A DNA stretch of 32,220 bases from NCBI GenBank assembly GCA_028700345.1, contig JAQVSW010000002.1:1-32220 (forward strand), written 5' to 3'. Positions within the stretch are counted from its first letter, which is position 1. Each line of letters opens with the position of its first letter. This DNA is from Candidatus Shapirobacteria bacterium (GTDB lineage: Bacteria > Patescibacteriota > Microgenomatia > UBA12405). The translations under genes were made by a program, and so were the position numbers. This document shows positions 17,385-22,520 of this stretch, piece by piece. The notes under the pieces are model-generated. The model had not been told where the DNA came from, searched no databases, and worked only from the letters and a program-made list of their open reading frames with translations.

Positions 17385-18043
17385 AAAAAATCTCTATCTT
17401 TTTAATTATTCTCATCTCTAGTTTCTCATTTCTAGTTTCTGTTGTTAACGCTCAAAGTCCAACTTCGCAAGATGAAATTCAAAAAATACGTGAAGTAATC
17501 CAGCAAAAGGTCCAGGAAAAGCTCGATGAAATAGGCGGAGAAGAAACTCTAAACCCCAAAAAGGCTTATTTAGGCACAATTACAAAAATTGAAAATCATA
17601 ACTTAAGTTTTGATTCAAAAGGGCAAAAATATGAATCAGTCATTAGTGATGATGCTACCTTTATCAACGAAAAACAAAATAAAATCAAAATTACTGATTT
17701 AAAAGAAGGTCAAGATGTTTTAGTTTTAACTCTAGTTAAAGACGAGATTATTTTCGCCAAAAGAATTCTTATAGTTGATCCCAGCAAGCTCGAGAATAAG
17801 AAAAATATTGCTTTAGGAAAAATTGCCGATATTTCAACGACTACTTCTGTTTTTGTTCTCATTCCTGTTGACAACAACAATCACGATCTTCAAATGAAAA
17901 TTGATACTAAGACAGAAATAGTGACCAAGGATAATAAAATTCTAAAGTTTTCCGATCTCAAAAAAGGGCAAAAAATAGTCTGTATCTACACTAATGGAGA
18001 AAATTCCACTTATCCTGCTCTCAAAATCATCACCCTCGATTAG
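17381..18043 (+). CDS. hypothetical secreted protein with signal peptide
   Basis: MKKISIFLIILISSFSFLVSVVNA/QS looks like a Sec signal peptide. Two similar segments (ITDLKEGQDVLV / FSDLKKGQKIVC) suggest an internal duplication. Confidence 0.55.
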   Translation: MKKISIFLIILISSFSFLVSVVNAQSPTSQDEIQKIREVIQQKVQEKLDEIGGEETLNPKKAYLGTITKIENHNLSFDSKGQKYESVISDDATFINEKQNKIKITDLKEGQDVLVLTLVKDEIIFAKRILIVDPSKLENKKNIALGKIADISTTTSVFVLIPVDNNNHDLQMKIDTKTEIVTKDNKILKFSDLKKGQKIVCIYTNGENSTYPALKIITLD

Positions 18044-18653
18044 TTTTTTTAAGTCTTTTCCTCATCAAGATATTTAACCCAATATGCTTTTTGTAATTGA
18101 CATTCTCTTCTATTTTTGCATTCCAATTAACCTCTCTCACTTTAATAATTTTAAAATCTCGACCGAATTGTTTTTCAATATCACTTAAATCCCTAAACAT
18201 TGGACATTTTGGCTTATACTTGTAAGCTGGATGTTTTTTAGAAAAACCAAAATAGATTAAATACCCCCCTGGCTTTAATGTCCTTGCCACCTCCTTTTCT
18301 GCTTGTTGTTGAGCGTTATTATCTGGCAACAAATGACTACAACCAGCATCAATAGCCGCATCAAAATAATTGTTTTTAAGAGGTAAACGGGTCGCATTGG
18401 CATGAAAATAATTTACATAAACACCCAGTTTAACCGCCTTCTCCATTGCCTCATCTATTTCTTTATTATCTATGTTTACTGCCGTGACTACCACTCCTTT
18501 ACTTGCCAGCCAATTTGAATTTCTACCAAATCCACAGCCTACGTCCAAGACTCTTTCTCTTTCTTTAATAATTCCCTCGCTAAAACATCTGACTATTTCT
18601 CCTGTTGGCTCATCACCCTGCCATCCAATATTGTTCCATTTTGTTTGACCCAC
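18030..18653 (-). CDS. class I SAM-dependent methyltransferase
   Basis: VLDVGCGFGRNSNWLA (motif I) and FDAAIDAGCSHLL. GTG start. Confidence 0.75.
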   Translation of the reverse strand: MGQTKWNNIGWQGDEPTGEIVRCFSEGIIKERERVLDVGCGFGRNSNWLASKGVVVTAVNIDNKEIDEAMEKAVKLGVYVNYFHANATRLPLKNNYFDAAIDAGCSHLLPDNNAQQQAEKEVARTLKPGGYLIYFGFSKKHPAYKYKPKCPMFRDLSDIEKQFGRDFKIIKVREVNWNAKIEENVNYKKHIGLNILMRKRLKKTNRG

Positions 18654-18685
18654 AAGCTATTTTATAACAATTCGACAATATTAAT

Positions 18686-18714
18686 TTGCACTAATTAATC
18701 TTTATTGTTACAAT
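18686..18714 (+). promoter_or_regulatory. sigma70-type promoter driving the His leader / tRNA-His unit
   Basis: TTGCAC (18686-18691), 17-nt spacer, extended -10 TGtTACAAT (18706-18714). This is the same 9-mer as in the gyrB promoter. Confidence 0.45.
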
Positions 18715-18721
18715 ACTTTCA

Positions 18722-18769
18722 ATGATATCTGCAATTGTGATTTCAAAACATCACCATACCACCAATTAA
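18722..18769 (+). CDS. candidate leader peptide MISAIVISKHHHTTN (three consecutive His codons)
   Basis: ATG lies 7 nt after the -10 element, so the mRNA may be leaderless; there is no SD. CAT CAC CAT at 18749-18757, TAA at 18767-18769, followed by mutually exclusive hairpins and a terminator. Confidence 0.35.
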   Translation: MISAIVISKHHHTTN

Positions 18770-18800
18770 TTTGGCGGTAATTGCTATATCATCCACAAGC

Positions 18801-18825
18801 ACCCGCCAAGAGCGGGTCTTTTTTT
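18801..18825 (+). terminator. intrinsic terminator located between the promoter and tRNA-His
   Basis: ACCCGC (18801-18806), loop caaga, GCGGGT (18812-18817), then C + T7 (18819-18825). It ends 5 nt before the tRNA. Confidence 0.65.
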
Positions 18826-18829
18826 ACAT

Positions 18830-18907
18830 GGTGGGATTAGCTCAATTGGTTAGAGCGTCTGCCTGTGGAGCAGAAGGTTGCCGGTTCAAGTCCGGTATCT
18901 CACCCCA
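18830..18907 (+). tRNA. tRNA-His (anticodon GTG) with encoded G-1 and CCA
   Basis: G-1/GTGGGAT/TA/GCTC-AATTGGTTA-GAGC/G/TCTGC-CTGTGGA-GCAGA/AGGTT/GCCGG-TTCAAGT-CCGGT/ATCTCAC/C73/CCA. The G-1:C73 pair is the HisRS identity element. Confidence 0.95.
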
Positions 18908-19005
18908 TGATCTATTTAAAACTTAATTTAATACACCATAGCCACACCGTGGTCACCAACCGGCGGGGTGTTGTCTTGGCCTAATAATACTTTTTGAAAA
19001 AATAT

Positions 19006-19035
19006 AAAATCCCCGTAAATTCGGGGATTTTTTTA
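19006..19035 (+). terminator. intrinsic terminator downstream of tRNA-His, upstream of the M20/hisS genes
   Basis: AAAATCCCCG (19006-19015), loop taaatt, CGGGGATTTT (19022-19031), T-run to 19034. Confidence 0.75.
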
Positions 19036-19063
19036 TCCCTATTTATAATTTACTAATAAAAAC

Positions 19064-20143
19064 ATGACCAAAATATTAGAATTAACCAAAAAACTAGTCT
19101 CCATCCCCTCCTGGGTTGATGAGCAAACTAACGAGTCAAAAATTGGTGAATATATTTTTAAATATCTAAAAAATAACACTAATCTTAGAATAGAAAAAGA
19201 AATGGTAACCAATGGCCGTTTTAATGTTTTAGCCATAAAAGGCAAGAATATTAAAACATTAGTTATGGGTCACATTGACACTGTCGGTATCAACAATAAT
19301 TGGGAAACAGATCCCACAACTTGTACCATCAAAAACGGTAAATTATTTGGTCGTGGCACCACCGATATGAAAAGCGGTATAGCCGCCATGATGCTTGTCG
19401 CTACCAACAAAAATCTACCAAATAATATTGGCTTTCTCTTCTATGTTGATGAAGAATATAATTTTAGTGGTATCAAAAAATTTATTGCCGATTTTGGCAC
19501 TAAAATCAAACCAAAGTCAATTATTTCTTTAGATGGTTCTAAGCTTGAAATAGCTAACGGCTGCCGCGGTCTAATAGAAATTTCAGCTACAGTTAAAGGC
19601 ATTAGTTGTCATGCTGCTACACCTGAAAATGGCATCAATGCCATTGAAGTTACTACTAGATCTGTGAGTAAATTAAAAAGATATCTGTCTCGATTTGTCG
19701 ATCCAGAGCTTGGCACCACCTCTGTCAACTTAGCTTCGATTGAGGGTCGTGGCAGTGCATCCAATGTCGTTCCCGACAACTGCTGTTTTGTTTTGGACAT
19801 TCGTCCCTCATCGTCACAAATTAACGCCAATTTAATTCTCAACAAGTTGAATAAATATGTCATTAAAATGGGTGGTAAATTGATTAATTCAAAAATTAAA
19901 TTCGATTTTAGTTCTTGGCTTACTCCCAAATCAAAACTTAAAAAACTTAGTCTAAATTTTAAAAATATCAGCACCTCAGGCTATATGGACACTCAGATGC
20001 TTTGGCAGATTTTTGACTATCCAAGCTGTTTAACCATTGGAGCTGGAGAACAAAAAACAGCGCACGCTTCGAATGAATATGTTGAAATAAAGAAATTGGA
20101 AAAATTACCAAAAATTCTTTTTGACATAATTCAAAAAATTTAA
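19064..20143 (+). CDS. M20-family metallopeptidase (ArgE/DapE/dipeptidase-like)
   Basis: LVSIPSW..., GHIDTVG, GRGTTDMKSGIAAM, YVDEEY: metal-binding and catalytic motifs of peptidase family M20. Substrate cannot be assigned. Confidence 0.8.
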   Translation: MTKILELTKKLVSIPSWVDEQTNESKIGEYIFKYLKNNTNLRIEKEMVTNGRFNVLAIKGKNIKTLVMGHIDTVGINNNWETDPTTCTIKNGKLFGRGTTDMKSGIAAMMLVATNKNLPNNIGFLFYVDEEYNFSGIKKFIADFGTKIKPKSIISLDGSKLEIANGCRGLIEISATVKGISCHAATPENGINAIEVTTRSVSKLKRYLSRFVDPELGTTSVNLASIEGRGSASNVVPDNCCFVLDIRPSSSQINANLILNKLNKYVIKMGGKLINSKIKFDFSSWLTPKSKLKKLSLNFKNISTSGYMDTQMLWQIFDYPSCLTIGAGEQKTAHASNEYVEIKKLEKLPKILFDIIQKI

Positions 20144-20170
20144 TTATTCTTACAATGTTAAAATCAATCT

Positions 20171-21418
20171 ATGAATAACAATAAAACACAAACATTAAAA
20201 GGTTTTCGGGATTTTTTGCCCGAGACCATGGCCGTTCGCAATTATGTCAAAAATCTCTTTATTGAGACTTTTGAAACTTTCGGTTTCGAACCTCTCGAAA
20301 CCCCAGCTCTTGAATACTCATCAGTTTTAAAAGGTAAATACAACAACGAAACAGATGAAAAATTAGGCTATTTCTTTAAAGATAATGGTGATCGTGAAAT
20401 TGGCCTACGTTACGACTTAACCGTCCCCACAGCTAAAGTTTTAGCAATCTATGGTCCTCAAATTCCGCTACCCTTCAAACGCTATCAAATTCAACCAGTT
20501 TGGCGTGCCGATAATACTCAAAAGGGTCGCTATCGCGAATTTATTCAATGTGACATTGACACTTTTGGTACCAATTCTCCAACTACCGACGCTGAAATAA
20601 TTTCTATTATTTACACTGCAACACAAAAATTAAATTTTAAAGAATTTACTATTCGAATTAACAGTCGTTCTGTATTATTAGATCTTCTAGCCCAAAGTGG
20701 TATTATCGAAAATCAAAATTCGGCTCTCCAAAGTCTCGATAAATTCCAAAAGATAGGTGAAGAAGGAGTTAAAAAAGAACTCATTAATAAAGATTTCACT
20801 CAGGCTCAAATTGATTCGCTATTTAAATACATCAAAGAGGCTAAAGCAGACGAAAGACTAAAAGCTGTATTTACCGCTATTAAAACTTTTGGTGTGCCAG
20901 AAGAATTCTATGTTTTCGATCCTACTCTTGTCCGAGGTTGTGATTATTATACTGGCACTATTTTTGAAACAACCGTTAAAGAACCAAAAATAGGATCTAT
21001 CGGCGGTGGTGGACGTTACGACAAATTAATAGAAACGCTTGGTGGCCCGGATATCCCTGCCGTTGGCTATAGTTTTGGCCTAGAACCAATTATTGATTGC
21101 ATTAATGAACTCAACTTATTACCTAATTTACCCAAAACTAAGACCAAAATTATGGTTGCTAATTTTGGTGAAAAAACCTTAAATAAATCATTAGAGCTCA
21201 CTTCTCTTCTCCGTCAAAACAATGTTCCGACTATTTTTTATCCAGATAGTGACAAAATTGGCAAACAGTTTAAGTATGCTTCCTCCAAAAATATTCCCTT
21301 TGTCGCTCTTATCGGCGAGGATGAGTTAATCAAAAACATCGTCACCATCAAAAATATGTCTACGAGTGAGCAAAAAACTATTTCCCAAAACGAAATCGTA
21401 GATTTTATGTTAAAATAA
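20171..21418 (+). CDS. hisS: histidine--tRNA ligase
   Basis: [57 protein letters not shown]: class II HisRS motifs. 415 aa. Confidence 0.93.
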
Positions 21419-21782: not shown

Positions 21783-22520
21783 ATGCCAACTATTAATCCC
21801 AATATTGCCATTCTCGAGTTTAGGCCAGGTCCAGGTGGTCAGGAATCAGCCCTCTGGATGGGTGATTTAATGCGCATGTACATTCGCTACTCAGAAAAAA
21901 TTAGCTGGAAGGTCAACTACCTCGACAATGATATTTTAAAGATAAGTGGCCTTGACGCCTTTAATCAGCTTAAATGGGAAACCGGCACTCATCGAGTTCA
22001 ACGTATTCCCATTACTGAAAAACACGGTCGTATCCAAACTTCAACAGCTGCTGTCGCAGTTTATCCTCAAATAACCACCAGTGATATCATCATTAATCCT
22101 GATGATATCGAAATGACCGCCTCTCGTGCCGGCGGCAATGGTGGTCAAAATGTCAACAAAGTCTCGACCGCCGTTCGAATTCTCCACAAACCCACCGGCC
22201 TCACTTTTTCCGTCCGTCAAGAACGCTCTCAAGAGCAAAATCGGGCTATTGCCATGGATTTACTCAAAGCCAAATTATGGCAGCTTGAAGAAGATAGAAA
22301 AACAGAAAAACTCGGAACCACCAGAGAAAAAGTTGGGCTCGCTATGCGGGCTGATAAAATTCGGACCTACAACTACGCTCGAAATCAAATCAAGGACCAT
22401 CGTCTTGAAAAAGATTTTAATTTAACTAAATGTCTAAACGGTGATCTTTACGATCTTCTTCTTGAATTAACTATCTTAGACGAACCTATCTCTAATTCTT
22501 CTTCTCCAAAACAACCTTAA
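21783..22520 (+). CDS. prfA: peptide chain release factor 1-like protein lacking the N-terminal domain 1
   Basis: [18 protein letters not shown] (a PxT-type tripeptide, here PIT, as in RF1) and [25 protein letters not shown] (GGQ). Only 245 aa. Confidence 0.8.

Follow-up and report, generated by a model that had tools for sequence, protein, structure and literature searches.

Organization of the leader upstream of tRNA-His

The contig JAQVSW010000002.1 of a Candidatus Shapirobacteria bacterium (assembly GCA_028700345.1) contains a tRNA-His gene that is directly preceded by a promoter, a short open reading frame (ORF) with three consecutive His codons, and an intrinsic terminator. The stretch analyzed, hereafter the window, comprises 32,220 nucleotides (nt; positions 1 to 32,220). 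The sequence of its histidyl-tRNA synthetase (HisS) puts the window in the tiny-genome Patescibacteria, with Candidatus Shapirobacteria or Woesebacteria as source names. The segment between the promoter and the tRNA is designated leader 1, and together with its terminator it forms the candidate attenuator 1. A first-pass annotation of the sequence had placed a promoter, an ORF, a terminator and tRNA-His here, and these positions are exact to the base. Leader 1 and its surroundings are composed of the following elements.

18686–18714, + strand: near-consensus promoter, with a −35 element TTGCAC (18686–18691), a 17-nt spacer and an extended −10 element TGtTACAAT (18706–18714), identified from the sequence and by promoter scan
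18722–18769, + strand: leader ORF 1, MISAIVISKHHHTTN followed by a stop codon, 15 codons, without a Shine-Dalgarno (SD) motif
18749–18757, + strand: predicted regulatory His codons CAT CAC CAT, codons 10–12 of leader ORF 1
18757–18765, + strand: region 1, UACCACCAA, beginning at the last His codon; partner of region 2
18771–18779, + strand: region 2, UUGGCGGUA, beginning 1 nt past the stop codon; partner of region 1 in the default state or of region 3 in the antiterminator
18780–18792, + strand: 3' strand of the outer helix, AUUGC.AUAUCAU, whose partner is 18722–18735 including the AUG; closes a three-way junction
18801–18825, + strand: intrinsic terminator 1, composed of region 3 ACCCGC(CAA), a loop, region 4 GCGGGU, then C and U7
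18830–18907, + strand: tRNA-His, anticodon GTG, with encoded G-1 (18830) and encoded CCA; found by ARAGORN and by the Rfam tRNA model (68.2 bits, body 18831–18907)

The ATG of leader ORF 1 (18722) lies 7 nt after the −10 box (18715–18721). The hairpin of terminator 1, ACCCGC-caaga-GCGGGT (18801–18817), is followed by C and seven T to position 18825 and was also recovered by a pattern scan. Terminator 1 ends 4 nt upstream of G-1, and tRNA-His is the first product 3' of attenuator 1. Promoter scan of the window found no separate tRNA promoter between leader 1 and tRNA-His, where the U-tract and G-1 are just 4 nt apart. The upstream neighbor is a SAM-dependent methyltransferase gene (18030–18653) on the minus strand, divergent from leader 1. 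Terminator 1 is ruled out as the 3' end of this gene and is foreign to it, because the gene runs on the opposite strand.

The three mutually exclusive pairings described in the first-pass annotation are all present in the window. Region 1 ACCACCAA is complementary to region 2 TTGGCGGT. TTGGCGG of region 2 (18771–18777) forms seven perfect base pairs with CCGCCAA (18803–18809), and regions 3 and 4 constitute the stem of terminator 1.

The His run stands out from the composition of the window. His accounts for 1.4% of the 9018 residues in the window ORFs, which contain no HHH. When both strands of the whole 32-kb window were searched for short ORFs with three identical residues within four and a terminator, only two matches were found: leader ORF 1 and another His-containing ORF at 18907–18984. 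SD-like motifs are also rare, preceding 3 of the 32 window ORFs, and many ORFs carry a TAnAAT box 5–8 nt before the start codon. The genome seems to lean largely on leaderless or SD-independent initiation.

Folding of the leader RNA

The segment 18722–18830 folds in RNAfold with an energy of −31.7 kcal/mol. The corresponding value for 200 dinucleotide shuffles is −16.4 ± 3.0 kcal/mol, and none of the shuffles is as stable (0/200, z = −5.1). The unconstrained fold of leader 1 is a three-way junction built from the outer helix, a hairpin containing the His codons and the region 1:2 hairpin, with the terminator next to it. In the window, the region 1:2 hairpin has an energy of −8.5 kcal/mol and the terminator 1 hairpin one of −9.4 to −11.0 kcal/mol. 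The antiterminator state, in which UUGGCGG pairs with CCGCCAA and a small inner helix forms, has an energy of −12.6 to −12.8 kcal/mol. The stabilities of antiterminator and terminator are comparable.

Ribosome positions were mimicked by masking all mRNA upstream of a point 13 nt beyond the A-site codon, a footprint assumed from Escherichia coli. Constrained folding covered 17 leaders, and three states were obtained for each of them. The unmasked RNA has region 2 sequestered and the terminator formed (17/17). When the mask is set for a ribosome at the last His codon, the nascent RNA takes the antiterminator as its minimum-energy structure (17/17), with energies of −10.6 to −22.1 kcal/mol vs −8.3 to −15.1 kcal/mol for the terminator hairpins. 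With the ribosome masked at the stop codon, the antiterminator is gone (17/17). The first-pass annotation had supposed that the antiterminator can compete with the terminator; at the last His codon the window leader gives −12.8 vs −11.0 kcal/mol, and all 17 leaders behave alike. Even L009, whose regions 2, 3 and 4 differ in sequence (UUGGUUGGUUUUGU... with ...ACAAAACCAGC), yields the same three states.

Leader 1 displays every defining feature of a ribosome-mediated attenuator that can be tested in a sequence: the His-codon ORF, the terminator, the exclusive 2:3 pairing and the geometry of stall site and stop codon.

Conservation of leader 1 among relatives

A set of 175 hisS neighborhoods was compared, comprising loci from species-representative genomes (L001–L080), from metagenomes (L081–L160) and from exact-protein look-ups of close HisS homologs (L161–L175). 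L161 (contig Ga0245669_000001) is nearly identical to the window, at 99.25% over 7.3 kb. Few close relatives were among the matches listed from the metagenome scan with a HisS alignment, and close relatives were taken from the exact-protein look-ups.

Shapirobacteria-like loci have tRNA-His and hisS on one strand, with the tRNA upstream. The design of His-run ORF, region 2 and terminator is found in 19 distinct loci whose HisS shares ~43–99% identity with that of the window. The short ORF, His run and stems are thus conserved in relatives, as the first-pass annotation had anticipated. The leader is followed by tRNA-His in 18 of the 19 loci; that of L006 stands immediately in front of hisS instead. 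The 19 leaders consist of 13–15 codons and contain two to four His codons, with synonymous exchange between CAT and CAC, followed by two or three sense codons and the stop. In the leaders read, the stop codon is 2–5 nt from the GGCGG core of region 2. Every ortholog of leader 1 has a G+C-rich hairpin followed by a U-tract, and the 5' arm of the hairpin is complementary to region 2.

Outside the His run the leader peptides are unlike one another, as illustrated by MIFACVLSKHHHTTN, MKSVVVIINHHHTTK, MNTAMEKSIHHTSN, MINLGKINHHHVN and MKSTNRFSHPHANL; MILANNIHHNHARV, MSNKTLCLNHHHANL, MFTKTLRSSHHHTNF and MMSLSLFHHHHDRE are further dissimilar examples. His makes up 19.4% of the leader residues vs 1.4% of the window proteins. 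Leader 1 is conserved as a design, that is, in its His run, stop position and regions 1–4, and not as a peptide. At the nucleotide level the leader is at least as conserved as the flanking genes; for example, the leaders of the window and L165 are 87% identical, and the flanking genes 77–79%.

The promoter is conserved as well. A TAnAAT box ends 6–8 nt before the ATG in 19/19 leaders, compared with 1.5% of all ATGs in the window, and a −35 element TTGACA or TTGACT lies 16–17 nt farther upstream in 16/19. Because the spacing between the −10 box and the ATG is conserved, implying a 5'-terminal AUG, the leader 1 transcript is predicted to be leaderless and to start at or beside A18722. The first-pass annotation had drawn the same suggestion from the position of the ATG.

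The default structure was examined in an alignment of 11 close relatives. Its positions are paired in 87% of cases, vs 31–47% when the partners are slid by 1–3 columns. Six pairs show compensatory changes, and the observed score is matched by 0/500 shuffles. Three of these pairs are in the outer helix, such as the change from U-A to C-G in L169 and L165. The region 1:2 helix is 98.9% paired, and the stem of terminator 1 is 100% paired with one covarying pair. In a 16-sequence alignment that includes distant leaders, 96% of cells preserve the 2:3 antiterminator pairing. Column-wise covariation over the 16 leaders is only modest, because distant leaders use other registers; for the leaders, per-sequence constrained folding is more informative. 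A covariance model of the close group retrieves distant leaders at the expected places with E = 2e-5 to 0.05. Its matches include leaders directly upstream of hisS (L005, L006, L070, L004, L054, L078, and L043).

In one lineage, represented by two of the loci, an additional ORF is inserted between leader 1 and tRNA-His (L165, 1562–2053; L166, 1555–2046). The ORF encodes 163 residues with HNH-like motifs and ends at the 5' end of the tRNA. The leader upstream of this insert is still 87% identical to the window leader.

A second His leader between tRNA-His and hisS

The tRNA-His gene is followed by another His-codon ORF, a terminator and two protein genes.

18907–18984, + strand: leader ORF 2, MIYLKLNLIHHSHTVVTNRRGVVLA followed by a stop codon; its ATG consists of the last A of the tRNA CCA (A76) and the next two letters, tg
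19006–19034, + strand: intrinsic terminator 2, AAAAUCCCCG-uaaauu-CGGGGAUUUU followed by a U-tract
19064–20143, + strand: gene of an M20-family metallohydrolase (ArgE/DapE-like); no protein gene lies between it and attenuator 2
20156–20164, + strand: extended −10 box of hisS, TGTTAAAAT, 6 nt before the hisS ATG; conserved in all relatives examined, whatever the upstream gene
20171–21418, + strand: hisS (tRNA-synt_His, 4.9e-40)

The His codons of leader ORF 2 occupy 18934–18939 and 18943–18945. Region 1' spans approximately 18944–18954 and region 2' approximately 18962–18971. The 5' arm of terminator 2, CCCCG(U), is able to pair with GCGGGG of region 2'. Folding with the ribosome stalled at the last His codon frees GCGGGG for CCCCG(U), and a ribosome reading on covers it. 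Leader ORF 2, with an H-x-x-H-T-V motif, is conserved in 14 loci, and three-state folding was obtained in 13/13 loci tested. tRNA-His is flanked by two predicted His attenuators in series.

The CCAtg junction of the window (18905–18909) recurs in L167, L171, L173, and L174. At the other loci leader 2 has an ordinary ATG located 2–90 nt past the tRNA. Where the ATG of leader 2 uses A76 of the tRNA, 3' maturation of the tRNA and the 5' end of the downstream mRNA would therefore be physically linked. In L043 (3969–3973) the ATG of hisS itself overlaps the tRNA CCA in the same CCAtg manner, and tRNA and synthetase would therefore be co-transcribed behind attenuator 1.

The conserved −10 box of hisS bears on what the upstream attenuators may regulate. 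hisS probably has its own basal leaderless promoter, to which read-through adds an inducible component. Because of this box, hisS depends at most partly on upstream read-through. The first-pass annotation had named tRNA-His, and possibly hisS, as the regulated product. The tRNA-His part of this claim stands; for hisS it stands only in part, given the separate −10 box and an attenuator 2 that intervenes before the protein genes.

Three lineages point in the same direction. Behind the tRNA of L172 come a terminator-like hairpin of its own and then the promoter of hisS. L064 and L175 have a new promoter past the tRNA, with leader 2 located farther downstream and, in L064, equipped with its own extended −10 box. 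Because a hairpin or new promoters follow the tRNA in these lineages, it is the only evident product under attenuator 1. These arrangements indicate that attenuator 1 would serve the tRNA specifically.

The M20 gene is missing at this position in L163, L171, L172, and L173, and is therefore no constant component of the system. Its only match is the ArgE/DapE subfamily, with scores under the equivalog (curated) cut-offs. There is consequently no basis for assigning it as a His-releasing dipeptidase.

Past hisS, the plus strand continues with rpmE and a release-factor gene (21783–22520). The release-factor gene encodes only 245 residues, and its Pfam PCRF match covers positions 101–194 of 194, with the N-terminal part missing. 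It is located 93 nt from rpmE, and the proteins of relatives are equally short (236–245 residues). Because only 93 nt separate the gene from rpmE, it is no simple frameshift split.

A repeat of ~90 nt (TTTAGGTRAAATTTTAAAC...AAAATTTTCCTAAAGACAAGACTCC..., two hairpins) occurs in L172 (3286–3380), L174 (1443–1540), L163 (3385–3470), and L171 (3400–3470). It sits 3' of attenuator 1 in some loci and 3' of attenuator 2 in others. The repeat may be a small mobile or processing element.

Proposed mechanism and alternatives

We consider it likely that leader 1 is a histidine-specific, ribosome-mediated (leader-peptide) transcription attenuator whose immediate regulated product is tRNA-His. The computational tests by which the first-pass annotation could have been refuted were all run, and none of them refuted the attenuator idea; the comparative evidence in its favor is strong. 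In the proposed mechanism, transcription would begin at or beside the A of the leader AUG and produce a leaderless mRNA. A ribosome would load on the 5'-terminal AUG while RNA polymerase completes the leader. When His-tRNA(His) is plentiful, the ribosome would reach the stop codon (18767–18769) and cover region 2 (18771–18779). The 3:4 terminator would then fold, and transcription would end at ~18825, before the tRNA. When charged tRNA-His is scarce, the ribosome would stall on CAU CAC CAU and cover region 1. The freed region 2 would pair with the emerging CCGCCAA of the terminator 5' arm, and the polymerase would enter tRNA-His. If no ribosome loads, the three-way junction would hide both the AUG and region 2 and lead to termination, so that the default state is off.

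Transcripts that read through would next meet leader 2, the AUG of which includes A76 of the tRNA, and the attenuator at 18907–19034. Attenuator 2 would gate the M20 hydrolase gene and would contribute inducible expression of hisS on top of that from its own probable promoter. Overall, the supply of charged tRNA-His would be held in homeostasis. Patescibacteria are generally reported to lack His biosynthesis, and the organism of the window probably lacks it likewise. The start site, translation of the ORF, transcription–translation coupling and the regulatory outcome are all deduced from the sequence in this scheme.

A more specific proposal is that attenuator 1 constitutes a dedicated tRNA autoregulatory circuit, in which charged tRNA-His, read at the leader His codons, would set the transcription of its own gene. 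As a further part of this proposal, processing of the tRNA 3' end at CCA|UG would create or destroy the 5'-terminal AUG of leader 2 and so couple tRNA maturation to the synthetase operon. We regard this proposal as about as likely to be right as wrong.

Several points weigh against the attenuator. UUGGCGG and CCGCCAA are nearly invariant, and covariation of the antiterminator is thin for this reason, being confined to one flanking position (U-A/A-U/G-C) and L009. The helices of the three-way junction are out of register in distant leaders, where they are 68–78% paired in the 16-sequence alignment. An Rfam search of 18500–19150 at E ≤ 10 gave no credible match to leader 1. The proposed mechanism assumes that transcription and translation are coupled in Patescibacteria. 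There is no obvious benefit in making more tRNA-His under histidine limitation; the loop makes most sense if the level of the tRNA or the charging capacity varies. Finally, L003 (9–85 and 1045–1119) and L007 (696–772 and 1736–1812) each contain two near-identical tRNA-His genes ~1 kb apart. The first copy has no leader and the second lies behind a His leader and attenuator. Each pair looks like a constitutive copy together with a regulated copy.

Other explanations fit part of these data. The leader could be a stand-alone gene, encoding a structured RNA of ~105 nt, a small protein or both, that acts in trans, with tRNA-His transcribed through constitutive leakage of the terminator and under no histidine control. 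The high stability of the free leader (z = −5.1) and the compensatory changes in the outer helix would agree with a functional RNA, and a terminated leader RNA would end in the terminator hairpin, which favors stability. Released attenuator RNAs with functions in trans are documented, as for the trp attenuator RNA rnTrpL and its peptide in Sinorhizobium (PMC6614838, PMC7298713). A trans-acting RNA or peptide gives no reason, however, why only the His codons, the position of the stop relative to region 2 and the complementarity between region 2 and the terminator arm should survive in leaders with otherwise dissimilar peptides and junctions, and leaves the strict linkage to tRNA-His or hisS unexplained. 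We regard this explanation as unlikely. A dual role, in which the attenuator also provides a trans-acting RNA, is possible.

The junction could also bind a ligand as an aptamer does, be it histidine, uncharged tRNA-His or some other molecule. Bound ligand would favor the 1:2 pairing and turn the terminator on independently of translation, and in its absence region 2 would build the antiterminator. The layout resembles that of an OFF riboswitch: a terminator lies behind a compact junction, and the 3' hairpin strand of the junction doubles as the antiterminator strand. Other Patescibacteria carry a different structured element upstream of tRNA-His, an AGUCACG-loop hairpin that is maybe an atypical T-box. 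On the other hand, leader 1 matches no Rfam family, and its junction and loop sequences are conserved among close relatives only. An aptamer would also leave the conserved reading frame unexplained, namely an ATG at the predicted start site, in-frame synonymous His codons and a stop 2–5 nt before region 2; such a switch is very unlikely. Finally, the short ORF could sense His decoding with an output other than termination. It would then act on the tRNA precursor (its processing, stability or maturation) or on how the downstream leaderless ORFs are translated. The tRNA does lie between two leaders, and the sharing of A76 with the leader 2 AUG would tie its 3' maturation to formation of the mRNA 5' end. 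Yet every leader has a G+C-rich hairpin with a U-tract and a region 2 specifically complementary to its 5' arm, the signature of termination control, and we find an output of this kind highly improbable.

Relation to known regulatory systems

The attenuator proposed for leader 1 would be a variant of trp/his-type attenuation that is leaderless, arranged in tandem, located in bacteria of the candidate phyla radiation (CPR), and has a tRNA gene as regulated product. At gathering thresholds Rfam reports only two tRNAs in the whole window. Weak matches of the His, Leu, Phe, and Trp leader models at ~18944–19036 are driven by the terminator and can be taken only as a hint. One of them, His_leader (RF00514) on leader 2 and terminator 2 (18944–19036), scores 29.9 bits with E = 0.0075, below the gathering threshold of 49. 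Leader 1 is predicted to work like the His_leader class but is not a sequence member of it. A T-box (RF00230; model threshold 93 bits) was ruled out for the window, where the model matches nowhere.

Leader 1 shares with hisL (RF00514) and the trp, phe, leu, and thr leaders a short ORF with clustered codons of the sensed amino acid and the exclusive 1:2, 2:3, and 3:4 pairings. Also shared with the enterobacterial leaders are an intrinsic terminator before the regulated genes, release of region 2 by a stalled ribosome and its occlusion by one that has reached the stop codon. The regulated product differs: a tRNA gene, followed by hisS, in the present case and biosynthetic enzymes in the hisL class. 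The present mRNA is moreover predicted to be leaderless and without an SD motif, and the host is a Patescibacterium. hisL contains seven His codons, whereas the leaders described here contain only two to four.

Leader-peptide attenuation of an aminoacyl-tRNA synthetase gene has a precedent in Bacillus, where His leader peptides are predicted in front of hisS paralogs; the same study documents switching between T-box and leader peptide at hisS (PMC2965389). The Bacillus leaders precede protein genes only, are found in Firmicutes and are not described as leaderless. In the window, by contrast, the cognate tRNA gene comes directly after attenuator 1, and a second attenuator in series lies before the protein genes.

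A precedent for leaderless sensing is provided by the polycysteine short ORFs of mycobacteria, which act as Cys-responsive attenuators (bioRxiv 10.1101/834739). They are reportedly likewise leaderless short ORFs at operon 5' ends that are rich in one amino acid and sense it. They differ in phylum and amino acid, and leader 1 has canonical terminator and antiterminator hairpins and a tRNA gene next to it.

T-boxes share with the proposed system the charging state of a specific tRNA as signal, aminoacyl-tRNA synthetase genes as typical targets and a choice between terminator and antiterminator. Unlike leader 1, a T-box binds the uncharged tRNA directly, without translation.

To our knowledge, leader-peptide attenuation, a textbook mechanism, is known to act on protein-coding genes, namely biosynthetic operons and a few aminoacyl-tRNA synthetases, and no experimentally characterized regulatory mechanism is known to us in Patescibacteria, a poorly understood phylum. 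Literature searches found no leader-peptide attenuator before a tRNA gene and no attenuator in Patescibacteria; their coverage is incomplete, and novelty is not thereby proven. If attenuator 1 is the tRNA autoregulatory circuit proposed above, it would be the first case of leader-peptide attenuation that regulates an RNA of the translation machinery. Attenuation logic would apparently be wired to a tRNA gene, establishing feedback from His decoding to tRNA-His supply and extending the mechanism to a stable RNA. It would also provide a concrete example of gene regulation in the CPR, and would imply tight coupling of transcription and translation and 70S initiation on 5'-terminal AUGs in these bacteria. 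With the wider His-leader family and a probable switch of sensing element in some lineages, both described below, the locus is suited to the study of gain, duplication and exchange of attenuators.

His leaders and other elements near hisS and tRNA-His

A crude scan was applied to both strands of the 175 loci (2.59 Mb counting both strands). Its targets were ATG-initiated ORFs of 8–40 codons that contain a His run and have a terminator no more than 130 nt away. The scan gave 75 matches, 74 on the hisS strand and one on the opposite strand. Apart from the tRNA-linked leaders, many belong to other Patescibacteria and are located 60–360 nt upstream of hisS (L006, L021, L032, L037, L049, L054, L056, L070, L078, L092, L093, and L107), and most hisS-proximal His leaders have a −10 box a few nucleotides before the ATG. 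Because many His leaders with such a box lie upstream of hisS, leaderless His-leader attenuation of hisS appears to be widespread in Patescibacteria. The tRNA-linked His leader would then be a lineage-specific elaboration.

At some loci a different element without a His ORF is located upstream of tRNA-His: L096 (2345–2545), L018 (3640–3830), L085 (1–130), L008 (2390–2560), and L013 (2470–2610). A hairpin with the loop AGUCACG, which contains the His codon CAC, is found in L096, L018, L008, and L013; the L085 sequence is truncated on its upstream side. A T-box-like GGAUGGGACCGCGG precedes the terminator in L096 and L085. In a search for T-boxes, the upstream elements of L008, L013, L018, L085, and L096 had no Rfam match at gathering thresholds or at E ≤ 0.05, and a narrow search of L096 gave 15.6 bits (E = 0.26). 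The AGUCACG-loop element may be an atypical short-stem His T-box before a tRNA gene. A switch to another sensing element at the same position is probable in some lineages.

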